The notes beneath the pieces are model-generated. The model made no database searches. It worked only from the letters and a program-made list of their open reading frames with translations, and was not told where the DNA came from. Below, piece after piece: positions 6,099 to 43,134 of a DNA stretch of 44,378 bases. The stretch is from assembly GCA_018656485.1 (NCBI GenBank), contig JABIAA010000050.1, positions 1-44,378 of the forward strand, in the 5' to 3' direction. The translations under genes and the position numbers were made by a program. Positions within the stretch are counted from its first letter, which is position 1. Each line of letters opens with the position of its first letter. This stretch comes from a bacterium (GTDB lineage Bacteria > Babelota > Babeliae > Babelales > GCA-2401785).

Positions 6099-8540
6099 TC
6101 AGCCGGCCTCAGCCTGGCCAGTCAAAGTTAATTCTTTGACGTCGACGGTTCGGGCACCACGGTTGGCAGTGACCATTCCTTTCCCCCCACCATTAGATTT
6201 GTCATCGCCGCCTAGCAAGTCCTGCAAATCTTTCAGGTGAATACTTCCGCCAGGGGCATTTATTTTCGCCTGGACTTCTAACCGCTTAAGCTCTTTGGAA
6301 AGCATCTCTTCACCACCATCGGGAAGCTCCTGTGCTAACACTTCCGTGAGATACGAAATTCCGCCAGACATATCTTTTTCCTGCTCATAGCTCTGCGCGA
6401 TGCGAACGTGACAGACAGGGAACTCTTTTGTGTGCTCAAGAACCTGCTTGTAGGCCTGGCGAGACTCAGTAAACTTTCCGAGAGAATACAAGCTCTCTGC
6501 AAGGTTGTAAGAGAACTTTGGAACATTCGGATACGCCTGTGAAAGTTGAGCGTATGATTCACAAGCAACATCAAGTTTTCCAAGAAGAAAGTACGCGTTC
6601 GCTCTGTTGAAAACAATCTGAGCGGTAACTTCATTTCCGCCCATTCGCTTAAGTGCATCATCAAAAGCTTGTGCGGCTTCTTCATACTTTTCAAGCTTGA
6701 GGCTAACTTGCCCAAGAATGTTGAATGCCTCAGAAACGTCAAGGTCACCTATTGTTGCATTTTTGAAGTGTTGCCACGCTTCTTCCATCCGCTCTTGCTC
6801 AAAACAAAGTCGTCCGTAGTTAAACCACGCTTTTCCGTAGTACGGTCGCAACGCAATTGCCTTGGTTAAGCACAACTCTGACTTTTCATATTCTTTTTTC
6901 TTCATGAGCAAAGAACCAAGGTTGTTGTAAGCTTCTGGATAATCTGGGAAGAGTCTTGTTGCTTCTTGAAGTGCGGCAATTGCTTTGTCATCGTTTCCGC
7001 GAACCGAATAAGCAACTGCCATGTTGCTCCATGGATCGGAATAAAATCTGTCGAGTCGAATTGCTTCGAGGTAATGTGGAATAGCTTCTTCGTACCGCTC
7101 GTGTTCGGAAAGAGCAACCCCAAGATTGTTGCGTGCGCGGGCCTTTGTTGGCGCCTTGTAAATTATGTCTTCCCAAAATGCGATCGTACTTCTCCACACT
7201 TCATTGCGTTGCATTGTTGTAATTCCAAGCATTGAAAAAGCCAAGAGAAAAATTGGAAAGACTTTTGGGAATGTAAGTTCAGAAATAAATTTCACATCCC
7301 ACTGCTTAACGATCCATCTCACTGCATAGACAATTCCCATTGCAATTATGAAAAGCCACCCTGGCGACGCCATGTAGGTTTTGTAGTCGCATACAAGTTC
7401 TGCGGATGGAATAATAGTTGATCTCGGAGCGGACACGGCAAAAAACCAAATCAAGCCAAAAGTTATTGGAGAAGCTTTATCTTTGCGGAACAGATGAATC
7501 GCAATTCCAAAAATTGTCATGAGTGCAAGAAATGAAAAGAATGTGTCCGGCGCAAAAAAACTAGGTGACAGCTTCCAGTCATACTCAACACTCATATTGA
7601 TAGGCCAAAGAAAGACAAAGAGGTAGTGCAGCAAAACTTTGAACTCGCTAATTAAAAACGAGAGGGGATAAATTGTGTCGTTAGCAGACTTCGTCAGGAT
7701 GTTCCCACGGTTATTCACGATGGAGTACTTCAGGCCAAAAATTTTCATGAAGAAAGCGGGCCTCATATAAAACAAGAGGGTCCCAAAAACCACGCCGGTA
7801 AACGCCAGGTGGAAAAGAAGCCTCTTCTTAAAACTGCTCCACTCGCCTTCTGCAATAAAAAACCAGTCAGTGATTAGAGCAAGTACCGGCAATGCGATAA
7901 CAATTTCCTTGGTCCCACAAGAAAGCGAACCAAACAAAAATGTCGCTGTGTACAAAGCAATTTTCGCCCACTCATTTTTCGTCTGCGCAGCCAAAACAAA
8001 GAATAAAAGAGTGATCAATGAAAAGCATGTCGCCAATCCTTCAAGCCGTGCCTGAATCGCATACGACACCGTCTGCGATTGAACTGGATGTAGGAGAAAA
8101 AGCCCCGCGGTAACCGATGCAAGCCACACCGCATTTGTTTGAAGGAATTTATGTTTTTTTAATTTTGCGCAAAGAAAATAGATGAAATAAAAAACTAACG
8201 CCCCGGTGATCATGTGGACCAGAACATTGCAGAAACGATAAATGTTCGGCGAAAAACCCCCGAACTGGTAATTCCATCTATTCAGGCACTCACCCATCCA
8301 ACGGCTATTGCTGAAAAGCTGTTTCTTAAAATCAAAGAATCGAATTTCAAATTTCTTCGTGATGTTTGCAAGGTCGTCAAATTGAAATGGGTATCCAAGA
8401 GATTTATAATAAAAAACATAGGTTAGAATCACCAAGACCGCAGGGGGAAGAATTAACTCCAGCCACGAAGTCCGCTCAACCCCAACACGACTTTTTGAAT
8501 GCACTCGACGCGACACGTTCGTCTTCACTCTCTTCTCCAC
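6099..8540 (-). CDS. multi-pass membrane protein with C-terminal TPR repeats (TMTC/DUF1736-like)
   Basis: The N-terminal half has about 10 TM helices and a YPFQFDDLANI motif. The C-terminal half has at least 8 TPR-like repeats (W.N.G..Y...G.Y..A...Y..A). The likely start is GTG 8540, 6 nt after GGAAGGAG. The ORF also stays open to an ATG at 8585. Confidence 0.8.
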   Translation of the reverse strand: MEKRVKTNVSRRVHSKSRVGVERTSWLELILPPAVLVILTYVFYYKSLGYPFQFDDLANITKKFEIRFFDFKKQLFSNSRWMGECLNRWNYQFGGFSPNIYRFCNVLVHMITGALVFYFIYFLCAKLKKHKFLQTNAVWLASVTAGLFLLHPVQSQTVSYAIQARLEGLATCFSLITLLFFVLAAQTKNEWAKIALYTATFLFGSLSCGTKEIVIALPVLALITDWFFIAEGEWSSFKKRLLFHLAFTGVVFGTLLFYMRPAFFMKIFGLKYSIVNNRGNILTKSANDTIYPLSFLISEFKVLLHYLFVFLWPINMSVEYDWKLSPSFFAPDTFFSFLALMTIFGIAIHLFRKDKASPITFGLIWFFAVSAPRSTIIPSAELVCDYKTYMASPGWLFIIAMGIVYAVRWIVKQWDVKFISELTFPKVFPIFLLAFSMLGITTMQRNEVWRSTIAFWEDIIYKAPTKARARNNLGVALSEHERYEEAIPHYLEAIRLDRFYSDPWSNMAVAYSVRGNDDKAIAALQEATRLFPDYPEAYNNLGSLLMKKKEYEKSELCLTKAIALRPYYGKAWFNYGRLCFEQERMEEAWQHFKNATIGDLDVSEAFNILGQVSLKLEKYEEAAQAFDDALKRMGGNEVTAQIVFNRANAYFLLGKLDVACESYAQLSQAYPNVPKFSYNLAESLYSLGKFTESRQAYKQVLEHTKEFPVCHVRIAQSYEQEKDMSGGISYLTEVLAQELPDGGEEMLSKELKRLEVQAKINAPGGSIHLKDLQDLLGGDDKSNGGGKGMVTANRGARTVDVKELTLTGQAEAG

Positions 8541-9060
8541 AACCGACTCCTTCCATGAGGCGCAGCATCTCCAAGCCACGCACATCGATTAAAAATAGTT
8601 TAGGAACAACCCCAGCAGAAGTAAACTCCGAGCCAAATCCAAATGACTTCACTTCACAACACGAGAATCTTATATAATTTATCAAATTGTTGGACTTCAA
8701 ATTTCTTCGTGATGTTCGCAAGATCATCAAATTGAAATGGGCATCCAAGAGATTCATAGTAAAAAACATAGGTGAGAACCACCAAGACCGCAGGGGGAAA
8801 AATTAACTCCAGCCGCAAGGTAACCGCTCATACTCCAACACAATTTTTGGACTGCACACAACGCGACACGTTCGGCTTCACTCTCTCTTCTCCACAACCG
8901 ACTCCTTCCATGAGGCGCAACATCTTCAAGCCGCGCACATCGATTAAAAATAGTTTAGGGATACAACCCCAACAGAAGTAAACTCCGCCAAAGGAAACTC
9001 CGCGCCAAACACAAATGGCTTCACTTCACAACAAAGGGTTTTATATCATTCACCAAATCG
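8346..9060. repeat. tandem direct duplication (about 344 bp plus about 365 bp) of the 5' end and upstream region of the TPR gene
   Basis: 8346-8689 and 8696-9060 align end to end with a few substitutions and small indels, for example ttcaaatttcttcgtgatgtt.gcaag and ccttccatgaggcgca.catct.caagcc.cgcacatcgattaaaaatagttt. Confidence 0.85.
8696..8940 (-). pseudogene. degenerate duplicate of the first ~80 codons of the TPR membrane protein
   Basis: The copy of the ATG at 8940 reads M-C-A-A-stop. An extra GA in the gagagagtg stretch shifts the frame. The remnant still encodes a FYYESLGCPFQFDDLANITKKFE-like string in a broken frame. Confidence 0.7.
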
Positions 9061-10873: not shown

Positions 10874-12067
10874 ATGATTTCTCCAGAAGAACAAATCAAA
10901 ACACTTCAAGTTGGCACCGAACAGATTCTCCCAAAAGAAGAGTTGAGGAAAAAGCTAAAGCGCGGAAAACCGCTCATTGTAAAATTTGGTGCGGATCCAA
11001 CTGCACCGGACCTGCATCTTGGGCACGCCGTCGTACTTTCCAAGTTGCGACAGTTCCAGGACCTAGGGCACAAAATTGTTTTCCTCATTGGTGATTTTAC
11101 AACGAAGATTGGTGACCCGAGCGGTCGATCAAAAACACGTCCACCGCTGAGCGACAAAGAAATTAAACAAAATGCAGAAACATACTTCACACAGGTTGCA
11201 AAAATTTTAGATCCCAAGAAAACTGAAATCGTCTACAACTCCACATGGCTCAACAAAATGATGTTGTCGGACATCCTAAAACTTCTTGGGAAGGTCACCG
11301 TCGCACGAATCATCGAACGAGAAGATTTCAAAAACAGGCTAGACAAAAATCTACCGCTCGGCTCTCACGAACTGTTGTACCCGCTGTTGCAGGGCTACGA
11401 CTCCGTTGAGTTGAAGGCTGACCTAGAGCTTGGTGGAAGTGATCAAACTTTTAACCTTCTCATGGGTCGACACCTTCAAGAACAATACGATCAAGAACCG
11501 CAAGTTGTTATGACTTTCCCCTTGCTTGAGGGAACCGACGGTGTCGAAAAAATGTCCAAGAGTTACAACAACTACATCGGGCTTTTCGAGACAGCTGAAA
11601 ACGCATTCGGAAAATTGATGTCCATTTCTGACGACCTCATGTTCAGGTACTCATTACTCCTTTTGCATACATCAAACGAAGAAATCGAAAAACAGAAAAA
11701 AGAAATCGCATCTGGTTCTTTGCACCCAATGGACCACAAGAAAAAAATTGCGCACACCATCGTCACAAAATTCTGGTCCAAAGAAGAGGCGGACAAGGGG
11801 CTTGAACACTTTAAGTCAATCTTCCAAAAGAAAGATTACGAACAAGCAACCGAGGTCAAAGTCAGTGGACTTGAAAGTCCGTGCTGGATCGTTGATCTTT
11901 TGAAGACTACAGGCGCTGTGACAACATCATCGCAGGCAAAACAACTCATCGAAGCTGGTGCGGTTACAATCGACGACGTCAAGGTCGCCGACTTCAAGGC
12001 AACAGTCAAATGGAAAGCCGGCTCAATCATTAAAGCAGGTAAAAAGAAAATTATAAAAATTAGCTAG
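10874..12067 (+). CDS. tyrS: tyrosine--tRNA ligase
   Basis: Class I HIGH motif (DLHLGHAV), KMSKS motif (EKMSKSYNN), a GGSDQ motif and a C-terminal S4-like domain. Length is 397 aa. Confidence 0.93.
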   Translation: MISPEEQIKTLQVGTEQILPKEELRKKLKRGKPLIVKFGADPTAPDLHLGHAVVLSKLRQFQDLGHKIVFLIGDFTTKIGDPSGRSKTRPPLSDKEIKQNAETYFTQVAKILDPKKTEIVYNSTWLNKMMLSDILKLLGKVTVARIIEREDFKNRLDKNLPLGSHELLYPLLQGYDSVELKADLELGGSDQTFNLLMGRHLQEQYDQEPQVVMTFPLLEGTDGVEKMSKSYNNYIGLFETAENAFGKLMSISDDLMFRYSLLLLHTSNEEIEKQKKEIASGSLHPMDHKKKIAHTIVTKFWSKEEADKGLEHFKSIFQKKDYEQATEVKVSGLESPCWIVDLLKTTGAVTTSSQAKQLIEAGAVTIDDVKVADFKATVKWKAGSIIKAGKKKIIKIS

Positions 12068-13095
12068 GCAATTCCAACCTCACCACACACTTCGAGCTCG
12101 ACTTTGATCACGTTGTCTGCAGCCGCGAGAAACTTGTCCCAACGCTCTTCATCCCAAGAGGACAAACAATCCGCTTCGTATGACGGATAACCGCTAAGCC
12201 AAATTCCCACTAGGCCATCCCAGACATCTTCGAAGGTGTCTCGCAAAGAAGCAGTATGTGGATTTTCTAAGCTTGCAGCTCGTGAGGCTTCCCACACATA
12301 AAGAATCATTTCAGCAAGTCGCTCATTGTACCACAGACGTTTTAAACCACCAGAAAGTTCTTCTGTTTCAATTGGTTCATATCCAAGTCCACAAATAATT
12401 GCTGAAGCTTTTTTTTGAACTTCTTTTGCACGATCAGCGCCTAAAAAATCGCAGGCTACTTTTGAAACATCGAGTAGTTTGTTGTCAATAACAAGAGTGT
12501 GCTGTTTGTGAAATGCACGAAGAGACATATTTACAAACATTGCCTCGAGCAAAAAGTCTTGTGCGTCCTGCGTGGAGAGATTCAAGCCCAGGCCATCAAG
12601 ACAACCTAAAACTTCAGAAAACTTACTTCGAATCTTGGCATTTAATTTTTTGTACATCAAAGCAACGCAACCACAAGCCGCTGCTGCAAACAAAGAGAAA
12701 CCAACGATCGGTTTCCACGTCAGCGCCTTGGCACCCTTAGGAACACTCATGATTCCATTTTTTTGCAAAGCAGCACAGATCCCAAGCGCAACGGGGCTGA
12801 TAATTGCCCCCCCGGCGAATGCATATTTTTCAAACTTATCCACCCTTGCAAGCGCTGGATATTCTGGCGTGTGAAATTTCACCCAAGCCTTTGTAAATCC
12901 GTTGATCTTCTCAAACAGCTCTTGCTGAAGATCTTTCTCCTCAAGTGCTTGGTAAATTTTTGCACTATCGCTGGCTTGTCCTGAACAAAGAAACTTTGAT
13001 GCGGCAAATTCAGAAATTTTGATTTCGGCGGGGCTAAAAGAAACACACGACTGCGATGCAGCACAAAAAAGTATTGCAAGTTTTAGAAACTTCAT
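12064..13095 (-). CDS. secreted/membrane protein with a central paired hydrophobic hairpin
   Basis: TGGAG RBS. The signal peptide is MKFLKLAILFCAASQSCVS. Two TM-like segments (FAGGAIISPVALGICAAL and IVGFSLFAAAACGCVALMY) are separated by 19 aa. The stop overlaps the tyrS stop within CTAG. Confidence 0.7.
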   Translation of the reverse strand: MKFLKLAILFCAASQSCVSFSPAEIKISEFAASKFLCSGQASDSAKIYQALEEKDLQQELFEKINGFTKAWVKFHTPEYPALARVDKFEKYAFAGGAIISPVALGICAALQKNGIMSVPKGAKALTWKPIVGFSLFAAAACGCVALMYKKLNAKIRSKFSEVLGCLDGLGLNLSTQDAQDFLLEAMFVNMSLRAFHKQHTLVIDNKLLDVSKVACDFLGADRAKEVQKKASAIICGLGYEPIETEELSGGLKRLWYNERLAEMILYVWEASRAASLENPHTASLRDTFEDVWDGLVGIWLSGYPSYEADCLSSWDEERWDKFLAAADNVIKVELEVCGEVGIA

Positions 13096-13170: not shown

Positions 13171-14169
13171 TTATCGCATTGTGACAACTTTAACAAAATC
13201 ATCATACACACAATGACATGGCTGCTCTACGAACATTTTGTAGCCAGCGACAGATCCGGCCATGCACGCGAGAAAACAAATAAGCTCACAACAATTGTAT
13301 CCATTGGGCACCCGGCTGTATAAATCTGTAAAACATTGGAACCGAGTTGCGCCATTATTCTCGTAAGTTGCAATAGAATTAAATATATTTTGCGCCTCAA
13401 AAATCCTTCTGTAGCAACGCCCGCGCCCGACAAGCCTACCGCAATGATCGTGTGCAAAATCAGATAGATCATTTAAAATTTCACACGAAGCGTTCGCCAG
13501 CGCTATTGTGCCGCTCATCAATGCCGCTTTCATTTTTTCGCCAATCTCAATCGCCTTTTTAGCTTTAAGATCAGAAAGACCTAGTTCGTCAAAAAGATTG
13601 AGGACCTCATTGACCACACTAAGAACAATTTTCACACGTGTTTCATCATAAAAATTTAGATTCGACCGCGCCCTTGAAAAAATAAATTCGTACAATGCTA
13701 CGACATCACGTTGCAACTCAATCGGATCATCGTTGGGAATTTCGTTCGACGCTCTGCTACACGAAGCAACCGGCGAACAAGATGCTCCACTGCCGAGGCT
13801 ACTAGCAAGTTGTCCAATGCTAAACGAAATTGGAAGCGCATCGACCACAACTTCATTGCTAAGGAGCTCCATTATAAAATCGTCTTGATGAACCGCAGGA
13901 AGAAGACTTTGAATTCTTGGATCATCTGAATTTTTTAGATGATCATCCATCCAATTCTTGAAGGATCTGAATTTTGCATCGCCAAGCATTTCACGCAATT
14001 TTGTCTTCGCCTTTTTGCGCTTCGCGGCAGTCGCTTCGTTGTAAGAATAAAACGCCATCCTGACTTGCGATTCAAAAGCAGCCCAGCTGATTTTCTCAAC
14101 CGCAAAGGCCCCTGAAACCACAACCAACAAAGCCGGAATTATGCACTTTACAAAATTGGAAATTTTCAT
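13171..14169 (-). CDS. secreted protein, paralog family A, member 1
   Basis: ATG at 14169 gives MKISNFVKCIIPALLVVVSGAFAVEKISW. It is paralogous to the next two genes. The C-terminal tail is Cys-rich and ends VVTMR. Confidence 0.8.
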   Translation of the reverse strand: MKISNFVKCIIPALLVVVSGAFAVEKISWAAFESQVRMAFYSYNEATAAKRKKAKTKLREMLGDAKFRSFKNWMDDHLKNSDDPRIQSLLPAVHQDDFIMELLSNEVVVDALPISFSIGQLASSLGSGASCSPVASCSRASNEIPNDDPIELQRDVVALYEFIFSRARSNLNFYDETRVKIVLSVVNEVLNLFDELGLSDLKAKKAIEIGEKMKAALMSGTIALANASCEILNDLSDFAHDHCGRLVGRGRCYRRIFEAQNIFNSIATYENNGATRFQCFTDLYSRVPNGYNCCELICFLACMAGSVAGYKMFVEQPCHCVYDDFVKVVTMR

Positions 14170-14210
14170 TGATGACTCGTGAAAATAAAATACAATAAAA
14201 AAACAATGGC

Positions 14211-15254
14211 TTATCGCATAACAACAGGATTTCTTGCTAGACAAACTGAACAGTCTCTGCATTCAAAGTAAAAAATCGCTGCATAGATACAAAAGTTCAA
14301 GCTCTTCGTGCCACAACAAATCCTATAATTACAGAAACGCCAAACTGATTCAAATACATCCTTGAAGCATCCAACATGATCACCCGCTTCATTCCTTGTT
14401 ATATCATGAAGGAGTCTATCCGCCTCGAGAAAAACATGTCGGCCATCAAAATTTTTATTCGCGCCCAAAGAACCGGTTGCGTCACGCCCATTTTTTCTCA
14501 TTCTCATAAATTCTTCAAGATCAAAGGCCAGCGTTTCAACAAGTTGTGTAATTTGCGTGTTTTTTGGACTTTCAAACCCCGCAATAAACTCTTGATTTTC
14601 AGCGCTACCTTTTATTTGTTTTATTAATTTCGAAGTAATTTTTCTGATTTTTTTGACATCATCATCTGACAAATCGGGATTAACACAAGTAAGAGAAAAA
14701 ATATTTCCCACCAAAGAAATCAGTAATTTAACTCGTTCATAATCATAAAAAGTGATCCGGTTTTCCACAGCCAAGTCTAATACCACCTTGAAACCATTAG
14801 CCAAACTTTCTCGCAACGATATTTCCGCGGAGGAATCGGCTACATGAGTTTTTTTCATTTTTCTATTTATCAGAACGCTTGAAGAAGCCCCGCCGTGAGA
14901 CCCCACTTGCTCAAAAGCGTCCCCAAATATTTGTGCCTTTGATACATCAACCACTTCACCAAGGAGATCAATAATGCAGCTGTCTTTGTATCCCTCCAAC
15001 ATCAAAGATTGAATTGACGAATTATTAATCTGATGTTCGAGAACCCAATCTTTGAAAAAAATAAATTTTTCTTCCCCCAATATCCTACGCAGTCCTTCTG
15101 AAGCTTTTTGACGCGCCTCTACATCACCATGGGAAAAAGCCATCGAGACCTTCAACTCAAATTCATCCCAACAAACCTTTTCAACGGCATAAATCTCCGA
15201 AAACAAAAAATATAAGATTAGTGTAATGGATTTTATAAATTGGATTTTTTTCAT
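14211..15254 (-). CDS. secreted protein, paralog family A, member 2
   Basis: ATG at 15254 gives MKKIQFIKSITLILYFLFSEIYAVEKVCW. Shared blocks include ITFYDYERVKLLISLVGN. The Cys-rich tail ends PVVMR. Confidence 0.8.
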   Translation of the reverse strand: MKKIQFIKSITLILYFLFSEIYAVEKVCWDEFELKVSMAFSHGDVEARQKASEGLRRILGEEKFIFFKDWVLEHQINNSSIQSLMLEGYKDSCIIDLLGEVVDVSKAQIFGDAFEQVGSHGGASSSVLINRKMKKTHVADSSAEISLRESLANGFKVVLDLAVENRITFYDYERVKLLISLVGNIFSLTCVNPDLSDDDVKKIRKITSKLIKQIKGSAENQEFIAGFESPKNTQITQLVETLAFDLEEFMRMRKNGRDATGSLGANKNFDGRHVFLEADRLLHDITRNEAGDHVGCFKDVFESVWRFCNYRICCGTKSLNFCIYAAIFYFECRDCSVCLARNPVVMR

Positions 15255-15376
15255 TTTCAACTCATACAAATAAATAAAACCAAAAATTAAGACGAAAAAT
15301 TCAACACTGTTTTATAATCAGTCAACAATCGACATAGAAATATAAAATCCCACCGGATTCACACATATGCATTAAT

Positions 15377-16381
15377 CTATTTGCCCCAGAAGACACCCCA
15401 CACAAAGTCTTTCCCAAAAAAGTAGACGTAAGGGAAAAAGTCCAAAGTACCCCAACTTTGATCGCCATAATCTCGTCGATTAGGAAAATTCTTGAACACA
15501 CTGGCACAACCACTTTCTTCATCTTTTTTGATTTCACCAAAGACCCGATTTGCTTCTCGCACTGCCGACAAACCTAAACTTCGCCGCCAACTGAACACTC
15601 GGTATTTCCAACTAACAAACTTCGAAAGGTCCAACATAATTGTTTGTAACGACTCTGAAAGAGAAGGACTTTGTGGATCTTGGAATTCACCAATACATTC
15701 GTAATTTGCAACACTCTTTTGAATTCGATCTATGACTGCCTCACAAATCTCTCTTATTTTGTCGGCCTCATCTTTCGATATGACAATATCGGAACAACCA
15801 AGCCTAAAAACTTTTCCTACCGCAGATAACAAAGCAGAAACTCTGGTACAATCATAAAATGTTAGGCTTGACTCTCTTGCCATATTTAATATCGCGTAAC
15901 ATTTTGCAACCAAGCTTTGCCGCAACGCATCCGGATCATCTTTCTTGATCGTCACGGTTTTGTTGCTACACTTTTTCCTGCAATGAGCCCTATCCCGAGG
16001 AATCAACCCACTATGTAATTCGATTGGATCTGCAACACTATCGATCTCTCGATCCTCTTGAATATCAACCACCTCACCAAGAAGCCTAGTCGCATAATCA
16101 TTTTCACGAACCGAAGAAAGAAGATTTTGTATTCTCGGATCTTTTTCATCTTCTAGGTATTTTTTTAACCACTCTCTAAACGCATCATATCGCCCACCCA
16201 ACATTTTGCGCAATTCAGATTTTGCAGCTTTCCGTTGCCTCTCAACCCAGACCCCAGAGTAAAAAGCCTTATTAACCTGTGCAGAAAAAGCATCCCAACA
16301 GACCTTGTCAACAGCAAAAGCTCCTGAGCCCGCAACCAACAAAATCAGGACAACATATCTTATAAAGCTTGGAATTTTCAT
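15377..16381 (-). CDS. secreted protein, paralog family A, member 3
   Basis: GAGG RBS. The N-terminus is MKIPSFIRYVVLILLVAGSGAFAVDKVCW. Shared blocks include LTFYDCTRVSALLSAVGK. The C-terminus differs from members 1 and 2 and is aromatic-rich. Confidence 0.8.
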   Translation of the reverse strand: MKIPSFIRYVVLILLVAGSGAFAVDKVCWDAFSAQVNKAFYSGVWVERQRKAAKSELRKMLGGRYDAFREWLKKYLEDEKDPRIQNLLSSVRENDYATRLLGEVVDIQEDREIDSVADPIELHSGLIPRDRAHCRKKCSNKTVTIKKDDPDALRQSLVAKCYAILNMARESSLTFYDCTRVSALLSAVGKVFRLGCSDIVISKDEADKIREICEAVIDRIQKSVANYECIGEFQDPQSPSLSESLQTIMLDLSKFVSWKYRVFSWRRSLGLSAVREANRVFGEIKKDEESGCASVFKNFPNRRDYGDQSWGTLDFFPYVYFFGKDFVWGVFWGK

Positions 16382-16398
16382 TTCGGCCTCGTGATCTA

Positions 16399-17196
16399 TT
16401 ATTTTTTACGTTTATTTTTTTTGCTCATACTTTCAATCCCTTTAATAAATTCATTAATGAACGATGAAAAGCATGTACAGCGAGATTCGTGATATGCATC
16501 CAAAACAGAGTCTGCAAAATTCCCACCGGGGTCGATTCCACACCAATCGATTCTGCGATCATCTCCAACATTCCAGTTGCGACGAGACAAAGTTTTAAGC
16601 ACTTTCATCACGCCACTTCTTGTAGCACCAGTCTTTAAAAAATCCATAAGGGTTGGCTCACCAATTGCTTTAGTAGATTCGTAAAGTTCTACAAGTTCAT
16701 CTGGTGTTATAACATCACCAAAAGAATTTGGACTGGGTGGAAGCCCTTGCTTTGCCGCAGCAGAAGTACGAAGCATTCTGTGATCAACCACACTACTGCT
16801 GCACGGACTGCGAACTTCAATCGCTACAAATCCTTCGAGAAGTTTTTTGGAGTTATATCCATCGTTTAATTTTTCGTCCATTTCACCGCTCTCAATTGCG
16901 GGGAAAATATCCTGACTTCGCACGCCACCAACAATGTTGCAATATCGCGTCAACCGATCACAAAACAATTTGCCTTTTTCTCTTCCAAGCACTGTATAAA
17001 TGTTGTCACGAGAAGTTTTCTGATCTCTTTTGAAGCATTTTCCAGGGCTCACAACACACCGATCAAACCAATTTCTAAAAGTCTCGGTGGCAACCGGAAC
17101 CTTTATCGCAGGTGGCCGCTTCGGTTGCGGCGTAGAAAAAATATTGCACGGAAGTGCGAGAAAACACACAAGCGAAATTGATCGAATAGAAATCAT
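16399..17196 (-). CDS. secreted protein, paralog family B, member 1
   Basis: The signal peptide is MISIRSISLVCFLALPCNIFS. The first 11 codons and about 45 nt upstream are almost identical to the next gene. The C-terminus is polybasic (SKKNKRKK). Confidence 0.8.
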   Translation of the reverse strand: MISIRSISLVCFLALPCNIFSTPQPKRPPAIKVPVATETFRNWFDRCVVSPGKCFKRDQKTSRDNIYTVLGREKGKLFCDRLTRYCNIVGGVRSQDIFPAIESGEMDEKLNDGYNSKKLLEGFVAIEVRSPCSSSVVDHRMLRTSAAAKQGLPPSPNSFGDVITPDELVELYESTKAIGEPTLMDFLKTGATRSGVMKVLKTLSRRNWNVGDDRRIDWCGIDPGGNFADSVLDAYHESRCTCFSSFINEFIKGIESMSKKNKRKK

Positions 17197-17274
17197 TCTT
17201 TAATCCCATAAAATATTTTTGTTTTTCAATGTATCAAGCCTTTAAGTCGAATCTGCCCCATCGTTTTTTGCCAC

Positions 17275-18303
17275 TCAATAGCTAGCGATTTTAATAGAAA
17301 GCAGCATGTACTCATAAAAAGTAACACCTGAATTCTTATACGAATCAAGTATAGACTTCGCCTCATCACCGGAAAAACCAACGTCGCCAAAATCTATGTC
17401 GTAATTTCCAAGTGGAACATGTTTATTCAAATCAGCCAAGCGCTGACAAGTGGCAACCACATGACACTTATGCATCGGAAAATCAAGAGGGAACCCAAAA
17501 CCTCCCTTGTTAACTTTAAGGACATCCTGCTTGAAGTTGGCAATGGCACCCTTAGTGTCTAAGATGGGGGGATAGTTCTCAAGGTTACCCATTACCACCA
17601 ACAAATAATCTAAAAAAGGAAGCTCTGACTCTAGATAGCAATCTACCATTCTCTTCGCCCAGTCTGAATCCGGACAAATCCCACAAAATTTTATATCTAG
17701 GCTACCAACCGGAAGAGATCTATTATGGTGCGCCAAAGTACTAAGTACATCAACCATAGTTGGCTTACCTCTAGAATCTAGATGTCGCACAGGACCGAAA
17801 AAACTCGTAACCTCATTCGGATTTAAAGCTCTCACAGACCCTTTGGGCTCTCTTGTAACTCTTGGCCTTGCAACCGCGGCTTCACGCACCTTCCTGTATG
17901 CAGGAAGAGGACTATCTTTTTTCGGAAAATCAACCCTATCATCGAGAAGATCTAAACAACTTTGTCCATCGGCTAGTTCCGCATCAATCCTACCATCACA
18001 GATTGCTGGCATAACATCCTGAATGCGCAGGCCTTCGAATTTTTCACAATATTTCTTTATCCGATCACGAAATGCCCTGCCTTGCTCATCGCCAAGAACC
18101 TTATCAATATTTTTACAAAAAGCTTTGCATTGACCGTCATTAAACTTTGCAGGGCTCACGATACATTCTACCCAATTTTTAAACATCCCCTCCTTCACAG
18201 GGAGTTTTATATTTTCAAGCGGCTTTGTTTTTTTGGGCGCAGAAAAAACATTGCACGAAATTGCGAAAAAACACACAAGCGAAATTGATCGAATAGAAAT
18301 CAT
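17275..18303 (-). CDS. secreted protein, paralog family B, member 2 (internally duplicated C-terminal domain)
   Basis: The signal peptide is MISIRSISLVCFFAISCNVFS. Two copies of a roughly 60-aa module are present (..LPVGSLDIKFCGI..AKRMVDCYLES..FLDYLL and ..VPLGNYDIDFGDV..AKSILDSYKNS..FYEYML). Confidence 0.8.
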   Translation of the reverse strand: MISIRSISLVCFFAISCNVFSAPKKTKPLENIKLPVKEGMFKNWVECIVSPAKFNDGQCKAFCKNIDKVLGDEQGRAFRDRIKKYCEKFEGLRIQDVMPAICDGRIDAELADGQSCLDLLDDRVDFPKKDSPLPAYRKVREAAVARPRVTREPKGSVRALNPNEVTSFFGPVRHLDSRGKPTMVDVLSTLAHHNRSLPVGSLDIKFCGICPDSDWAKRMVDCYLESELPFLDYLLVVMGNLENYPPILDTKGAIANFKQDVLKVNKGGFGFPLDFPMHKCHVVATCQRLADLNKHVPLGNYDIDFGDVGFSGDEAKSILDSYKNSGVTFYEYMLLSIKIASY

Positions 18304-18338
18304 TTTTTAATCCTATAAAATATTTTTGTTTTTTGTAT

Positions 18339-19256
18339 TCAAGCAATCGCTTCAAGCAATCGCTTCTGCTCGAGAAGCAAAGAATCTACGCAATGGAAAA
18401 AATGCTTCTCATCCTCTGGACCATGATAGATCGGAAAAGTTGTATTCCATTCTTTCTGTGCAAAATTATCATCGACAAATTTTGGTTCAAATTGAACCAA
18501 AATCGATTTACCAGGACTGAAATCCCCACTTGCTTTAAACTTAAGGCAACAACTTCCCTTCAATTTATCAATCCCATCGTCTAAATCGATTGCCATTTGC
18601 TGACCAGAAACAACATTGCTCACAAGAGCCGAAACCCCATCCCGAATTATCGATGCAACCGCACGCGTTACAAAACGATCTTCATGCAAAGAATCTACCG
18701 GTGATGAAAGTAAAAAATTTTCGAACAATGCGACGAAGGCTTCGATATCCCTTCTAACAACTGTCTCTTTTTTAGCTTTCTCCGATTTGAAAGCATCCGG
18801 GCTGATCACGCTTAGATCGTTTGGAACAAAGGTTCTGCTTGTTGAGCGACTGCTAGAATTTTGCGGGCTAACCGGTTCCTCAAATTCAATCCGGTCTTCA
18901 ACAAGCCGTTTTAGTTTTTCTCGCCCTTTTAAATCTTCAACCTTAGAGCCTTTCACCGCCTTAAGATCTTTTTCCATCGACGACCAGTTGTATTGCGGAA
19001 AGCTCAAAATCCAATCCACAAAAACGTTAACCCCGTCTTTGCCAAAGTTATCCGCGAGATCAGCCTTCGCTTCCTTGCGAATTTTTTCTGTTTTTCCAAG
19101 ACGAAACCTACGAACAATCCCAGGCAGTGAGCTCAATTTAACTTTTGCGTTACTTGGAATAACAACGCGAATCGGTCTTTGATTTTTTCCAGCACAAACA
19201 TTAAATTGCGAAACAAAAAACATCGAAAGCGTGAGCATTAAAAATTTCTTTAACAT
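18339..19256 (-). CDS. secreted protein, paralog family C, member 1
   Basis: ATG at 19256 lies 7 nt after the stop of member 2, with an AGGAA RBS. A signal peptide is present. The N-terminal ~160 aa are near-identical to member 2. Confidence 0.8.
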   Translation of the reverse strand: MLKKFLMLTLSMFFVSQFNVCAGKNQRPIRVVIPSNAKVKLSSLPGIVRRFRLGKTEKIRKEAKADLADNFGKDGVNVFVDWILSFPQYNWSSMEKDLKAVKGSKVEDLKGREKLKRLVEDRIEFEEPVSPQNSSSRSTSRTFVPNDLSVISPDAFKSEKAKKETVVRRDIEAFVALFENFLLSSPVDSLHEDRFVTRAVASIIRDGVSALVSNVVSGQQMAIDLDDGIDKLKGSCCLKFKASGDFSPGKSILVQFEPKFVDDNFAQKEWNTTFPIYHGPEDEKHFFHCVDSLLLEQKRLLEAIA

Positions 19257-19263
19257 GAAGTTC

Positions 19264-20244
19264 CTAAATTTTTAACGTAAAACTTGAAACGGCCTGCTCA
19301 TATGCTTCTCTCAAACAATCATCAGTCAAAGGCTGCCCACTTTCAATTTTCTGTTTACGAACACCGACAAGCCTTTCGGAAAAAAGAACAAAGTTTGAAA
19401 TCGTAAAAAATGACTGAACGTCACGCGGACCACGGTACAGCGGCCGCTCAGGATCCCACACATCATCAAATTCATCTTCAAATTTCACATTAATAGAATT
19501 TTCTTTGGTGTAATCCCCACTAGCCTTGAAGGCAAGCTCGAAGCTTTCCGCACGCCCATCGAATCTAATAACGGAAGTTTTTCCTGAAACTAACATCGAT
19601 GCAAGCTCATCAATCCTATCAACAAGTTCCGCAATAACCATATATGTTACTGCGCCCCCTCCCGCTTGCGAAGAACGTGGCGTTGCCTCTGCAAAAAAAT
19701 TTGCAAGGCACTCAATAAAATACTTCGCGTCTTTTGCAACAACCTTTTCTTTTCGATAACGCTCAGACCTGAAAGCATCCGGGCTTAGCGCACTTGGATC
19801 GCTTGGAACAAATGTCCTACTGGTAGAGCGATTTCCAGAGTTCAGTGGACTAGCTGTTTCCTCAAATTCTATACAGGCTTCAACAAGTTGTTTTAGCTTT
19901 TCTCGCCCGTTTAAATCTTCAACCTTAGAGCCTTTCACCGCCTTAAGATCATTCTCCATCGACGACCAGTTGTATTGCGGAAAGCTCAAAATCCAATCCA
20001 CAAAAACTTTAACATCTACACCAAAACTACATACGAGATCAGCCTTCGCTTCCTTGCGAATTTTTTCTGTTTTCCCAAGACGAAATCTGCGAACAATCCC
20101 AGACAGTGAGCTTAATTTAACTTTTGCGTTACTTGGAATAACAACGCGAAGAGGCTTGTTGTTTTCTCTATTCCTTCCGGCATTCACATCGAAGGCGCAA
20201 AAAGAAATTGAAAACCAAATGAGAGATAAAATTTTAATTAACAC
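19264..20244 (-). CDS. secreted protein, paralog family C, member 2
   Basis: GTG start at 20244. The signal peptide is MLIKILSLIWFSISFCAFDVNAG. Family motifs FKASGDY and PLYRGP are present. Confidence 0.8.
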   Translation of the reverse strand: MLIKILSLIWFSISFCAFDVNAGRNRENNKPLRVVIPSNAKVKLSSLSGIVRRFRLGKTEKIRKEAKADLVCSFGVDVKVFVDWILSFPQYNWSSMENDLKAVKGSKVEDLNGREKLKQLVEACIEFEETASPLNSGNRSTSRTFVPSDPSALSPDAFRSERYRKEKVVAKDAKYFIECLANFFAEATPRSSQAGGGAVTYMVIAELVDRIDELASMLVSGKTSVIRFDGRAESFELAFKASGDYTKENSINVKFEDEFDDVWDPERPLYRGPRDVQSFFTISNFVLFSERLVGVRKQKIESGQPLTDDCLREAYEQAVSSFTLKI

Positions 20245-20348
20245 AGCAAACCTTTATGAAACCTAATTAAAGTGGTTTCAAAGGTTTACATCGAAAACAA
20301 AATATCGTCAAACAATATTGAGAAAAACATTAAAAATTTATAAAGCTG

Positions 20349-21320
20349 CTACAGCTTGGAAATACAGTTTTGGGAACAATTACAAGTACAGCCATTTTTT
20401 ACAGCGTTCTGCTTTCTAATTCCATCGTATGAAAAACGATAAAAATTGTCCTCTGAGAAAAAACTTTCAGCATCACCTGGGCCACGATACAGCGGAAGAT
20501 TTGGAGAAAAGTTATAGCAACCGCACTCGCCACAAAAAGAAACTCGTATCGATTTTTCAGCGGAATAATCACCAGTCGCGCCAAGACAAAACACAAAAGT
20601 TCTGCCATCATCAACAGGATTTGGCATGGATACCCTTTTCACACCGCCTGAGACAAGCGCATTCGCAATTTCATCAACGAAATTAAACAAGTTCCGAGCT
20701 GCCGCACAATTCTCAGTCTCGAAATCCCCAGACAAATCGACAAAAAATTGCTCTAAACACTTGATAAAGAGCATTACGTCGTCACGGACGACAACTTTTC
20801 TTCTAGAAATCTCTTCTTTTCTTGCTCTATTAATTTTGACAGTTTCAAAATCAAGATAGTCAGGAACTTCTGGAATCCCAGTCGCACGATTTCCCGAATT
20901 CTGTGGACTAGCCTTTTCCTCGAATTCAATTTTGGCGAGAACAATTTGATGAAACTCTTCAACCGGATTATTCTCAGTGCTCATCGCCCAAAGTTCTTTT
21001 TTTATTTGCGACCAATTGTACTGTCCCAAACTCAAAATCCAATCTGTAAAAACTTTAGCGCCACGCTCTCCAAATGAATCAACAAGCTCTCTCTTTGCTC
21101 GTTTCTTTTCATTTACAAAGCCATTACAGAACTCACCAAGGATCGTGGACAGTGAACTCAGTATTATTTTTCCGTTACTTGAAGTTGAAATGCGCGATGG
21201 AGAATGGAACTTAGCCTTTCCCGCCCGAACTACATTATTAGGACCACTTCTTCCGGCATTCACACTGACGGAACAAAAAGAAATTGAAAAACAAATGAGA
21301 GATAAAACTTTAATTAACAC
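20349..21320 (-). CDS. secreted protein, paralog family C, member 3
   Basis: GTG start at 21320. The signal peptide is MLIKVLSLICFSISFCSVSVNAG. Motifs GATGDY and PLYRGP are present. The C-terminus is Cys-rich (NGCTCNCSQNCISKL). Confidence 0.8.
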   Translation of the reverse strand: MLIKVLSLICFSISFCSVSVNAGRSGPNNVVRAGKAKFHSPSRISTSSNGKIILSSLSTILGEFCNGFVNEKKRAKRELVDSFGERGAKVFTDWILSLGQYNWSQIKKELWAMSTENNPVEEFHQIVLAKIEFEEKASPQNSGNRATGIPEVPDYLDFETVKINRARKEEISRRKVVVRDDVMLFIKCLEQFFVDLSGDFETENCAAARNLFNFVDEIANALVSGGVKRVSMPNPVDDGRTFVFCLGATGDYSAEKSIRVSFCGECGCYNFSPNLPLYRGPGDAESFFSEDNFYRFSYDGIRKQNAVKNGCTCNCSQNCISKL

Positions 21321-21435: not shown

Positions 21436-21503
21436 TAGCCGGCCAGAAGCCCAAAGGGCGAAGAAAGCGAATTTTCATTGGATGTGTTGGTCCAGCCTAC
21501 GCC
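21436..21503. repeat. short dispersed repeat, copy 1 (downstream of the tRNA cluster)
   Basis: It is similar to 21631-21699 (ccggcc..gaagcc...gcgaag.aagcgaattttcattg.a.gt...ggtccag). It contains the 17-mer AGCCCAAAGGGCGAAGA, which also abuts the tRNA-Asp 3' end at 21778-21794. Confidence 0.6.
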
Positions 21504-21630
21504 ATTTAATTATCGCCAAATTTTTTCGAAAAACGATGCAAATTCATGGATCCAGCCAACTGTTCAATCTTGACGGGCTATGGCGGGCAGCCTTCTTTAT
21601 CTAAAAATCTTCTTAGAAAATACCACTACT

Positions 21631-21699
21631 GGCCGTTCCGGCCGAAGCCTTGTGCGAAGTAAGCGAATTTTCATTGAACGTACCGGTCCAGTCTTCGTC
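21631..21699. repeat. short dispersed repeat, copy 2
   Basis: This is an imperfect copy of 21436-21503. Identity appears to be roughly three quarters by eye. Confidence 0.6.
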
Positions 21700-21795
21700 A
21701 AGACTTCGACGGACAGTCTTCTCATTTTGCGAACAATGTTTACTTAAAATTCCACCAAAAGCTGGCGTGCCGGTCGTAGCCCAAAGGGCGAAGAC

Positions 21796-21873
21796 TGGCG
21801 GGGTTGACGGGACTCGAACCCGCGACCTTCCGCGTGACAGGCGGACGCTCTAACCAAACTGAGCTACAACCCC
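21796..21873 (-). tRNA. tRNA-Asp (GTC), CCA encoded
   Basis: The reverse complement folds as a cloverleaf. The acceptor is GGGGTTG/CAACCCC, the anticodon arm is TCCGC-CTGTCAC-GCGGA, the T-loop is TTCGAGT and the 3' end is GCCA. Confidence 0.9.
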
Positions 21874-21924
21874 AAAGACGGTATGCTGCAGTCAAAATCT
21901 GACTTGCATACCCCGAAGGGAAAA

Positions 21925-22000
21925 TGGCTCCCTGGGCGGGACTCGAACCTGCGACCTAACGATTAACAGTCGTGTGCTCTACCAACTGAGCTACCAGGGA
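21925..22000 (-). tRNA. tRNA-Asn (GTT), CCA encoded
   Basis: The acceptor is TCCCTGG/CCAGGGA, the anticodon loop is CTGTTAA, the T-loop is TTCGAGT and the 3' end is GCCA. Confidence 0.9.
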
Positions 22001-22067
22001 ACAAAAATTTCAAAATCCGTGCGGACTTATGGCTGTGCCGGCCGTAGCTCACTTTGTGAGCGAAGGC

Positions 22068-22144
22068 TGGTGGGCGAAACAGGATTCGAACCTGGGACCC
22101 CCTGCTTGTAAGGCAGGGGCTCTAACCAGCTGAGCTATTCGCCC
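22068..22144 (-). tRNA. tRNA-Val (TAC), CCA encoded
   Basis: The acceptor is GGGCGAA/TTCGCCC, the anticodon arm is CCTGC-CTTACAA-GCAGG, the T-loop is TTCGAAT and the 3' end is ACCA. Confidence 0.9.
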
Positions 22145-22273: not shown

Positions 22274-23251
22274 TTACTCCTGCGACTCGTCGCCAGACCC
22301 TTTCTCCGGGCTAAGTGCAGCACAAGCAGTTGCAAAAAATTCATCAACTGACTTCGCTGCCAGCAAAATATGCCACCGGACAACAGCAGCAATTGCTCCC
22401 CCGGCTTGCCCAGTCCAAAAGCATCTTGTATCAACAAGCATCTTTATCATGTGTTTGAACGATATCCGGGCTTTATCAACTCCATCCGAGTCCTCTGGAA
22501 GAGCGCGCAGGGCATTGACTATCGCAAGCAATCGGCGCAAACGCGCAACTTCCTGCTCATCAAATTTTGCCATCGCAAAACTAGAAACCTTTGCCGCATC
22601 GTCCATAGTAACAGGAAACTTATTCTCGAGATATGAATCAGCAGCCTCGGTCGCTTGCGTAAACTTGTCCGAATTGAAACCAATATTGCGGGCGAATTTC
22701 ATCAAAGGCCAATACGCAAAAGCCGCTTTGATCTCCTCATCCGAAGCACCTGCTTCCCCAAGCGCACGATATAATTTTTTAAAGGCCCTTGTGCCCGATG
22801 TCAAATCCCGAAGCACCATATAAGAACAAAAAAACATCACCGACGATGCAAGACCAAAACTTACTGGAATGCCCCATGGTACCGCAGTGCCTCTTTTTTT
22901 TGCGGATAGAACATATGCAGCAGATAAAGTGGCTATTCCCATAACCCCACAGAACAACGGTACATAAAAAACTTCTTTCACTGCTTTCGCCACAGAAATA
23001 TTTTCAAGGTTTTCGCAACCCAAATGCATAAACCAAAGTTCTGCGAAATCGGCAAAATTGGAAACCAGCTTGTCACGCTGCTCAGTTTCAAGATCACTCC
23101 CCCAAGAAAACGGTAAAAACTTTTCCGTTGCACCTGAGCCAAAACCATCTGCCAAAATGTCAGGACTCAATGCATTGGACTCCGAATAAAGCCCGGAGCT
23201 CCCAGCACAAACACAGCACAGCAAAGCCGCTACCAGTCGCCTATTTACCAT
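22274..23251 (-). CDS. secreted/membrane protein with a paired hydrophobic hairpin
   Basis: ATG at 23251 lies 7 nt after GGAAGGAG. The signal-like N-terminus is MVNRRLVAALLCCVCAGSSG. Two TM segments (VFYVPLFCGVMGIATLSAAYVL and IPVSFGLASSVMFFCSYMVL) are separated by 12 aa. The longer ORF to 23401 would run through the rlmB promoter. Confidence 0.7.
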   Translation of the reverse strand: MVNRRLVAALLCCVCAGSSGLYSESNALSPDILADGFGSGATEKFLPFSWGSDLETEQRDKLVSNFADFAELWFMHLGCENLENISVAKAVKEVFYVPLFCGVMGIATLSAAYVLSAKKRGTAVPWGIPVSFGLASSVMFFCSYMVLRDLTSGTRAFKKLYRALGEAGASDEEIKAAFAYWPLMKFARNIGFNSDKFTQATEAADSYLENKFPVTMDDAAKVSSFAMAKFDEQEVARLRRLLAIVNALRALPEDSDGVDKARISFKHMIKMLVDTRCFWTGQAGGAIAAVVRWHILLAAKSVDEFFATACAALSPEKGSGDESQE

Positions 23252-23365
23252 CTTCTCACTCCTTCCCAAAGAATCAATGCCGCATGCGATTTTATCACCG
23301 AGGACAAGAAAGTCCAGGAGGGAGCGGTACAAAACCGCATGTTTTCGGAAACCTTTCGTACAAAT

Positions 23366-23393
23366 TTGATATCCACCGATCGCGTGGTACAAT
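23366..23393 (+). promoter_or_regulatory. sigma70-like promoter (TTGATA, 16 nt spacer, TGgTACAAT)
   Basis: The -35 element TTGATA is at 23366-23371. The extended -10 element TGGTACAAT ends at 23393. It lies just upstream of the rlmB-like gene. Confidence 0.5.
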
Positions 23394-23423
23394 GTGGCCA
23401 ATGGTAAGTTTAATCCTATCCGA

Positions 23424-40242: not shown

Positions 40243-40803
40243 ATGAAACGTATTATTGCTCCAATGGTCGCTATCGCGATGTTCGCAGGAATGGGCTATG
40301 CAGGCGGAGACGATGCACCAAAGGCAGAAAAAACCCCTTGGGCACCTGAGTGGAGACATCACAGTGTTGACACCCTCGGAGCTTTTACAACTCTCGCACT
40401 TCTCACACTCAAGGACAATAGCTGGAAATTTGACAAGGGTCTTGTCGACGCATTGAAGGGTCGATTCTCCAACGTTCCAAAAACAGCGACAACACTTGGC
40501 CTGATGGCAGGAACATGGTTCGCCTTAGAACTCCTACAAAACAAAATCGCTAGATCTGGCTGGAAAGTCTACCCTCACACATGGGAAGACACCAAGGCAC
40601 TTGTCAGTGGTGAAAATAAAGCAGCAACGTGGAAGACACTTGGAAAATCATTTGTTGTTCCTTACGGTAAAGCACCAAAGCCACCGAAGGAAAAAGATCC
40701 AGTAGATCCACCAAAAGAAAAAGATGTACCGAAACCTGAAGCCGAACAAAAAGACACAGCTGCGCCAGCACCAGCACCAGCAACAGAAGAAAGCAGCAAA
40801 TAA
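40243..40803 (+). CDS. secreted protein with a Pro/Lys-rich C-terminus
   Basis: GAAGGA RBS. The signal peptide is MKRIIAPMVAIAMFAGMGYAG. The C-terminus reads PKPPKEKDPVDPPKEKDVPKPE. Confidence 0.7.
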   Translation: MKRIIAPMVAIAMFAGMGYAGGDDAPKAEKTPWAPEWRHHSVDTLGAFTTLALLTLKDNSWKFDKGLVDALKGRFSNVPKTATTLGLMAGTWFALELLQNKIARSGWKVYPHTWEDTKALVSGENKAATWKTLGKSFVVPYGKAPKPPKEKDPVDPPKEKDVPKPEAEQKDTAAPAPAPATEESSK

Positions 40804-40859
40804 AAATCTCGGCATTGGTAACTGAAGTGAACTTCTAGTAAGTTTTACTTCGTTAAAAA

Positions 40860-40893
40860 AGAGCTCGGAGCTAAACTCCCGGGCTCTTTTTTT
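40860..40893 (+). terminator. rho-independent terminator
   Basis: AGAGCTCGGAG-loop-CTCCCGGGCTCT is followed by TTTTTTTAT. Confidence 0.7.
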
Positions 40894-41008
40894 ATTTCTT
40901 CTGCAAGCAAAGTTTTCTCCCATTTTTTTAAAGCCTTCACAATAAAAAAAACACTGATACTATTGGGCCAACGCGAACACAATCATTTCACAAAGTGGGG
41001 AAAGACTC

Positions 41009-43122: not shown

Positions 43123-43134
43123 TAGGCGAAAAAT

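Follow-up and report, generated by a model that had tools for sequence, protein, structure and literature searches.

Eight tandem genes for predicted exported proteins in a deep-branching Dependentiae lineage: a probable lineage-restricted superfamily with a common N-terminal domain and segmental gene conversion

MafB-type polymorphic toxins of Neisseria combine a Sec signal peptide, a conserved N-terminal domain and a variable toxic C-terminus with an immunity gene, and are encoded in tandem clusters. At the vlp/vsp loci of Mycoplasma and the lpl (DUF576) loci of Staphylococcus aureus, tandem paralogues encode exported proteins for which the 5' untranslated regions and signal-peptide codons are near-identical, while the mature parts diverge and recombination within the arrays makes mosaics. 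A further layout, known from the RXLR and CRN effectors of oomycetes and the SVM proteins of phytoplasmas, consists of a signal peptide, a conserved N-terminal unit, a recombination-prone junction and a diversified C-terminus. We analysed a bacterial contig of 44,378 bp over its whole length (JABIAA010000050.1, hereafter the window), on which a tandem array of eight genes, sorted into families A, B and C (Table 1), encodes predicted exported proteins with a layout of this general kind. The reading that we favour, and hold to be probable though far from certain, is that they form a single lineage-restricted superfamily of exported proteins, which arose by serial tandem duplication of one ancestral gene in a deep-branching member of the Dependentiae.

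The array consists of eight consecutive open reading frames (ORFs) of similar size on the same (minus) strand, spanning positions 13171-21320 and separated, in array order, by 41, 122, 17, 78, 35, 7 and 104 nucleotides (nt). All eight products have an identical architecture, with a signal peptide, an N-terminal domain (N-domain, or module), a low-complexity linker and a C-terminal region, and all are annotated by NCBI as hypothetical proteins (HOD08_01910 onward). BLASTP matches are strong within families (E values of 4e-22 to 5e-38 in A, 4e-40 in B, and 7e-39 to 4e-97 in C) and only weak between them, so that both the extent and the A/B/C grouping given in the initial annotation are recovered identically. 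The ratio of nonsynonymous to synonymous substitution rates (dN/dS) is 0.23-0.56 in most regions where dS can be estimated (the exceptions being three short signal-peptide segments of family C, with values of 0.82-1.83), indicating coding genes under constraint. Only one homopolymer of at least 8 nt lies within the eight genes, a T8 at position 16415 in the 3' end of B1.

The initial annotation had pointed to a basic-helix motif ending in LG/FG and followed by F..W or F..R. This motif is indeed found in all eight proteins, including C2, which was absent from the earlier list. When the mature N-terminal regions are aligned with MAFFT, two positions are invariant in 8/8, namely the G of LG/FG and an F seven residues further on; the residue three positions past this F is W in families A and C and R in family B. 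The motif had been placed just after the signal peptide; the basic helix actually begins 25-50 residues past it. The additional motif ascribed to A and B (DPRIQ / G[LV]R[SI]Q) occurs in A1, A3, B1 and B2, and A2 retains the IQ alone. A second common motif, LLxxxV(D/E)(F/I/V), ends the domain just ahead of the linker. The common unit thus runs from the mature N-terminus to this second motif, over about 85-115 amino acids (aa), and is not a 25-aa motif.

Because basic helices of like composition might resemble one another for trivial reasons, as the initial annotation had itself allowed, the similarity between families has to be judged against shuffled controls. With hhalign on mature full-length proteins, A against B scores 32, which none of 150 column shuffles reached (shuffle maximum 21.6), and A against C scores 26.4, reached by 1 of 150. 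Hidden Markov models (HMMs) built with one family left out at a time were compared with 1000 global shuffles and with 1000 shuffles made within 15-residue windows, which keep the local composition. They gave 15.6-20.9 bits for A1-3, 14.1 bits for B2 and about 7 bits for C1 and C3, and none of the 1000 shuffles of either kind beat these proteins; the score of B1 was reached by 2/1000. In a further test, alignments of two families were rebuilt without the left-out family and then compared with it by hhalign, against 100 shuffles. B+C against A scores 43.5 (P 3e-6; 0/100 shuffles; probability 88-92%), A+B against C scores 22.5 (P 0.007; 0/100 local shuffles, near the shuffle maximum of 20.4), and A+C against B scores 19.2 (2/100 shuffles). 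The match between A and B spans 80-100 columns and includes the terminal motif. The controls are thus beaten overall, suggesting that the similarity between families exceeds what composition would give, solidly for A-B and for A against B+C, and marginally for C. These comparisons support, again marginally for family C, an N-domain that is a homologous module common to all three families.

An AlphaFold2 model of the A1 module, which rests on the alignment of the eight sequences, has a mean predicted local distance difference test (pLDDT) score of 82 and a predicted template modelling (pTM) score of 0.71. Helices at residues 6-18, 22-39, 41-57, 63-72 and 74-81 make up a compact five-helix unit, with a small beta bridge from an N-terminal strand to the terminal LLxxxVxF motif. 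The conserved positions take up distinct places in this model: helix 2 with the Gly at its C-terminal end, together with the core face of helix 3, makes up the basic-helix...LG...F..W motif, and helix 4 starts with the DPRIQ motif. A Foldseek search of PDB and BFVD with the module model found no match (E >=1.6, TM <=0.44). If our reading is right, the N-domain would be a new small helical domain, with neither sequence nor fold relatives.

The initial annotation had proposed that an HMM of the module would find further members. None was found: among 1.84 billion representative proteins, the HMMER profile of the module gives ten matches at E <=0.001, of which seven are the array proteins themselves (B2 being represented by a 69-aa fragment, P0009). 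C2 has no separate entry among these matches and is assumed to fall in the 50% cluster of C1. Any other called module protein of the source metagenome-assembled genome (MAG) should presumably have surfaced, as the proteins of this MAG sit in the searched collection. Similarly, the module HMM matches no other ORF of the window and no six-frame ORF of the rlmB-ftsA-ftsZ loci of five relatives. When the profiles of families A and C were used in word-indexed searches, only self matches or near-identical strain copies came back. Back-translated patterns were scanned against species-representative genomes for A and C and against Joint Genome Institute (JGI) metagenome contigs for A and B, and gave nothing beyond near-identical copies from the same population.

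Searches for known domains were equally negative. Pfam gave no significant match to the array proteins (the best of six weak ones has an E value of 0.027, and all are far below the gathering scores), NCBIfam gave one chance-level match (E 0.078, 10 bits against a cut-off of 1500), PHROGs gave nothing, and a sequence search of PDB gave nothing below E 0.02. PDB sequence matches to FliG, flagellin and a SusC-type N-terminal domain at E 0.02-0.3 were rejected, the last because its alignment passes through an alignment gap region. Kinship with the HPt domain (PF01627) was also discarded: there is no Pfam HPt match up to E 1 and no HPt structure among the Foldseek matches, and HxxKG is absent from the aligned region.

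In every family, amino acid identity is higher in the module (34-82%) than in the C-terminus (14-34%). The array is mosaic at the nucleotide level as well. In the tract common to C1 and C2, which starts at the first mature codon, nucleotide identity is 83-87% for the repeat as a whole and reaches 98% in sliding windows. The codons of the module have a dS of 0.30, and those of the C-terminal part one of 2.4; past the tract, nucleotide identity falls to about 45%. C2 and C3 share about 80 nt of upstream sequence together with signal-peptide codons 1-24, and B1 and B2 share about 30 nt of upstream sequence together with the signal-peptide codons, with dS close to 0. As selection on the protein cannot yield low dS, these tracts point to recent gene conversion. 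The tracts break off where the signal peptide meets the module and where the linker meets the C-terminus, and C2 reads as a three-piece mosaic with a C3-like 5' end (promoter and signal peptide), a C1-like module and linker, and a C-terminus of its own. What is new here, judging from these tracts, is gene conversion in segments whose ends match the limits of domains.

Under the favoured reading of serial tandem duplication, a single ancestral gene would have given rise to the eight genes and their subfamilies A, B and C. The slower-evolving N-domain would have stayed the sole part recognizable between subfamilies, the C-termini having diverged past detection (their replacement being less likely), and segmental gene conversion among neighbours would re-homogenize 5' pieces, its breakpoints falling between domains. 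The products would be soluble proteins exported by the Sec route. Docking or sorting would be the common task of their conserved, mostly basic N-domain, and specificity would be diversified through the C-termini. Such exported factors would be typical of the signal-peptide ORFans that appear to dominate Dependentiae genomes.

Several points weigh against this reading. Each family profile is built from very few sequences (2-3, with an effective number <2), and family C enters at P ~0.007 and leave-one-out scores of 1-7 bits, the score of C2 being reached by about 2% of shuffles. B against C alone is not significant (hhalign score 17, reached by 21/150 column shuffles). The homology of the C-termini between families is assumed, dS is saturated for most pairs, and the full-length model of A1 is poor (pLDDT 44, with 60-82 in the module and residues 110-148 unstructured; a Foldseek search with it, at E >=1.6, is meaningless given the quality of the model). 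Finally, the signal peptides were called by a home-made rule-based heuristic, and it is with low confidence, and indirectly, that we take the mature proteins for exported envelope or host-interaction factors.

Modular shuffling is a rather unlikely alternative, in which N-domain and linker would be a mobile unit fused, within the array and without any toxin/immunity logic, to three unrelated C-terminal domains. In its favour, a flexible low-complexity linker divides the parts (in seven of the eight proteins, S, P, G, T, N, A and Q are enriched over the first 40 residues past the module), and recombination at the signal-peptide/module and linker/C-terminus boundaries is demonstrable in C1/C2/C3. 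C-termini of different families also show no detectable similarity: hhalign scores between them come from short segments and are reached by 87/100 (A-C), 2/100 (A-B) and 7/100 (B-C) shuffles. However, within-family alignments are full length, the C-termini being homologous within families, and each module subtype pairs with one C-terminal type, as expected from whole-gene duplication rather than from cassette swapping. The tracts are conversions between homologous genes and not foreign fusions, and no donor of any C-terminal domain was found in the databases searched. Moreover, as the module outlasts the faster C-terminus within families, an older split would leave the module alone recognizable without any exchange of cargo, the faster C-terminal evolution being sufficient to erase older similarity. 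The initial annotation's picture of a common leader with variable C-termini thus holds for the module, which is common, and for the C-termini, which are not detectably similar across families; the analogy that it drew with polymorphic toxin and effector superfamilies is not supported.

Two further observations concern the C-terminal regions. A candidate common motif (A 'VGCFKDVFESVW', B 'LDIKFCGICPDSDW', C 'INVKFEDEFDDVW'), alike in weak BLASTP and hhalign matches, is not significant and was rejected. In addition, the C-terminal half of B2 (17275-17700) has two apparent copies of a unit of about 60 residues (PTMVDVL...IKFCGICPDSDWAKRMVDCYLES and ...IDFGDVGFSGDEAKSILDSYKNSG) that is present once in B1. 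The second unit would then stem from the internal duplication of a domain in one member of the array, on the basis of one weak BLASTP match (E 0.25, B1 216-247 against B2 303-334).

Less probable still is that the N-domain would be a lineage-specific sorting or delivery domain of a Dependentiae parasite, acting in periplasm release, outer-membrane vesicle loading, or entry into or anchoring to a protist host. Concerted evolution would then keep it uniform, and recombination at the linker would re-pair it with diversifying effector C-termini. If true, it would be a bacterial analogue of RXLR/CRN-type effectors in a phylum for which we know of no effector-delivery signal.

Convergence or chance is, in our view, an improbable explanation too. 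Under this hypothesis, A, B and C would be unrelated neighbours that have in common an amphipathic basic helix, a Gly turn and a helix hairpin. The module profile does catch unrelated helical repeats, such as a coiled coil ('AERKAAVMKLESSLGQ') and HPt domains ('LYALIGEDEPELFNDLIQSYL'), with single stretches of up to 15 bits, like some of the cross-family scores, and B-C alone is not significant. The three remaining matches of the profile search are of this kind, and each was rejected as a summed-repeat artefact: P0008, a coiled coil like those of eukaryotes, in which 29 stretches score <=4.4 bits each; P0010, a repeat protein rich in Ala, Lys and Cys, whose stretches score <=13.2 bits; and P0011, a hybrid histidine kinase with HPt repeats of <=14.9 bits each. 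However, such matches are the extremes of 1.8 billion proteins, whereas the cross-family matches come from eight adjacent genes. The latter beat the local-composition shuffles, and all pairings of the three families fall in the same register. The length of the A-B match, its second terminal motif, the same position within an identical architecture and the hhalign probability obtained for B+C against A also argue against chance.

The weakest hypothesis is that of a polymorphic toxin or of delivered effectors, in which a conserved trafficking leader would carry alternative toxic or effector C-termini. The initial annotation had recognized the layout of such superfamilies here, and the succession of signal peptide, N-domain, linker and divergent C-terminus does recall MafB-type toxins and RXLR/CRN-type effectors, in an organism from a host-dependent phylum. 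It had also remarked that no immunity-like small ORFs or dedicated secretion genes are visible, and we agree on both counts: the gaps of 7-122 nt hold no immunity gene and leave no room for one (small ORFs overlap the genes or lie within them, in other frames), and no type V secretion system (T5SS)/two-partner secretion (TPS), type VI (T6SS), type VII (T7SS) or other secretion genes were found in the window. As, in addition, the module does not recur on other proteins or species but is confined to the eight array proteins among the 1.84 billion representatives, no toxin, immunity or defence-related family is matched in Pfam, NCBIfam or PHROGs, and the window holds no orphan C-terminal cassettes and no leader joined to non-homologous C-termini within a family, this hypothesis finds no support in any of the defining tests that could be run, and we judge it very improbable.

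All eight proteins have signal-peptide-like N-termini, with a basic n-region, an uncharged h-region of at least 10 residues and small residues at -3/-1. For example, the rule-based check predicts cleavage after ...SGAFA and before VEK in family A, and after ...VNA and before GR in C2 and C3. No strong transmembrane segment was seen in the mature parts of the eight proteins, the one borderline exception being a hydrophobic stretch at the C-terminus of A1. By eye, no Cys of families A and C stands in a lipobox context, and B1 has P at -1; B2 (FAISC) is the only fit, and a borderline one, to a relaxed Prosite-style lipobox pattern (strict pattern [LVI][ASTVI][GAS]C). The 3' ends of the A-family genes (13171-13300, 14211-14330 and 15377-15480) encode hydrophobic, aromatic protein tails, which are Cys-rich in A1 (...NCCELICFLACMAGSVAGYKMFV...VTMR) and A2 (...ICCGTKSLNFCIYAAIFYFECRDCSVC...VVMR), with a Kyte-Doolittle 19-residue mean of 1.76 in A1. 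These tails may be membrane-associating or lipid-modified.

Apart from the array, the window carries tyrS, tRNA genes, rlmB, ftsA, ftsZ, rpsA, ndk, efp, nusB and ORFans. Its FtsZ has no close relative, the best matches being 55-61% identical over the full length and about 74% over the conserved core, and named FtsZ matches are nearly all from Candidatus Dependentiae or Babeliales. The source organism thus appears to sit deep in the Dependentiae (TM6). A second assembly (L001) is 99.99% identical to the window and identical across the array, its two mismatches both lying in tRNA-Val. In five relatives, the order dNK-rlmB-x-ftsA-ftsZ-pgeF is conserved and the array is not present at the rlmB-ftsA-ftsZ loci, from which it follows that the array sits in a lineage-specific stretch. 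Its G+C content is 0.38-0.42, against 0.43-0.49 in the flanks. An integration island, suggested by three adjoining tRNA genes and low G+C content, was considered and rejected, as no flanking tRNA-end direct repeats, integrase or mobile-element genes were seen.

Exported-looking ORFs are common in the window, accounting for 24 of its 37 large ORFs according to a crude heuristic, and many of them are tandem ORFan pairs. This share fits that of Chromulinavorax destructans, the one well-studied marine Dependentiae isolate, in which 44% of the coding sequences have a signal peptide, a set enriched in ORFans (PMC6561590). Neighbouring ORFs on the plus strand at 33183-35367, 40243-41680 and 42454-43683 have N-termini that look alike (MKFISAILALALC... 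beside MKIIYAILALALC...) and no Pfam matches; from the look of these N-termini, they may be further tandem sets of signal-peptide ORFans. Two other ORFans, 12064-13095 and 22274-23401 (both on the minus strand), bracket the array and the tRNA cluster, and each starts like a signal peptide and has two hydrophobic segments. The two align colinearly along about 185 residues, with a Smith-Waterman score of 52 that 6-12 of 500 shuffles reached, and may be distant paralogues flanking the locus. Finally, the ndk gene (31283-31759, plus strand) encodes a 25-residue signal-peptide-like extension (MCFKKIISKAILVFLMTAGVAYA...), with the Pfam NDK domain starting at residue 26. The nucleoside diphosphate kinase would then be exported, an unusual trait that makes it interesting in a host-dependent bacterium.

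Two repeats complete the description of the window. A GC-rich hairpin motif (CTTCGCC-CTTTGGGC-T.C..CCGGC, with variants) occurs four times, at about 21458-21504, 21640-21700, 21760-21795 and 22030-22065; the sites are located after tRNA-Val, after tRNA-Asp and, for two of them, between tRNA-Asp and C3. Two of the copies lie within a 47-nt repeat (81% identical), and the motif has no Rfam match. A direct repeat of about 290 nt (8346-8630 and 8696-8987, 89% identical) looks like a partial 5' gene duplication, its upstream copy containing a 54-aa ORF (8654-8818, minus strand) in which the N-terminal membrane segment encoded by the gene for an 828-aa TPR protein (6099-8585) is found again.

Table 1. 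Positions in the window of the array genes, their N-modules, the tracts of high nucleotide identity and the adjoining tRNA cluster
Feature	Position	Strand	Remarks
A1	13171..14169	(-)	332 aa; NCBI MBT4594613.1, HOD08_01910; signal peptide aa 1-23
A1 N-module	13837-14100	(-)	aa 24-111; AlphaFold model made
A2	14211..15254	(-)	347 aa from MKKIQF; N-module aa 24-106 = 14937-15185; one-residue variant P0001 on a JGI contig
A3	15377..16381	(-)	334 aa; N-module aa 24-109 = 16055-16312; profile-search match P0007
B1	16399..17196	(-)	265 aa; N-module aa 22-129 = 16810-17133; 4 Cys in module
B2	17275..18303	(-)	342 aa; MBT4594617.1; N-module aa 22-129 = 17917-18240
C1	18339..19256	(-)	305 aa; N-module aa 23-128 = 18873-19190
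C2	19264..20244	(-)	326 aa, GTG start; MBT4594619.1; N-module aa 23-130 = 19855-20178
C3	20349..21320	(-)	323 aa, GTG start; N-module aa 23-136 = 20913-21254
C1/C2 tract	C1 18756..19189; C2 19738-20168	(-)	83-87% nt identity; C1 aa 23-167, module and linker
C2/C3 tract	C2 20174..20324; C3 21250-21400	(-)	90% nt identity
B1/B2 tract	B1 17129..17226; B2 18236-18333	(-)	93% nt identity
tRNA-Asp, tRNA-Asn, tRNA-Val cluster	21796..22144	(-)	directly upstream of array

If the favoured reading is right, the array provides a further example of host-dependent bacteria with reduced genomes building private repertoires of exported proteins, in this case through tandem duplication, faster divergence of C-termini, and gene conversion tracts that end at domain boundaries. 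It would also illustrate that the appearance of a conserved leader with variable cargo can come from asymmetric divergence alone. The reach of this example is limited to one locus of one uncultured organism, and the phenomenon is well known in general. The N-domain is nevertheless a candidate handle for the study of export or host interaction in Dependentiae.

Among described systems, the signal-peptide ORFans of C. destructans (PMC6561590) are like the array proteins in phylum, in Sec signal peptides and in having no homologues. That study treats the class in bulk, and the array family, the N-domain and the conversion mosaic are not described there. No sequence kinship of the array proteins to any C. 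destructans protein was detected in the profile search of 1.84 billion proteins. MafB proteins resemble the array in the order of signal peptide, conserved N-domain and divergent C-terminus, as well as in their tandem gene clusters. They differ in that the array has no immunity gene, recognizable toxin domain or alternative C-terminal cassettes, its N-domain is not spread across strains or species, and its C-termini co-vary with the N-domain subtype. The array is also like RXLR, CRN and SVM proteins in architecture. However, their N-terminal units, for which a role in host delivery is demonstrated or proposed, occur on hundreds of proteins whose C-termini are clearly unrelated, whereas the array comprises eight proteins at one locus. 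Finally, it differs from the vlp/vsp and lpl loci in that no lipobox is evident by eye (with the borderline exception of B2), no internal tandem repeats occur in the mature parts, no phase-variation tract was seen beside the genes, and there is no sequence similarity. The array nonetheless resembles these loci in its upstream and signal-peptide tracts, which are 90-93% identical in B1/B2 and C2/C3, and in its recombination mosaics.

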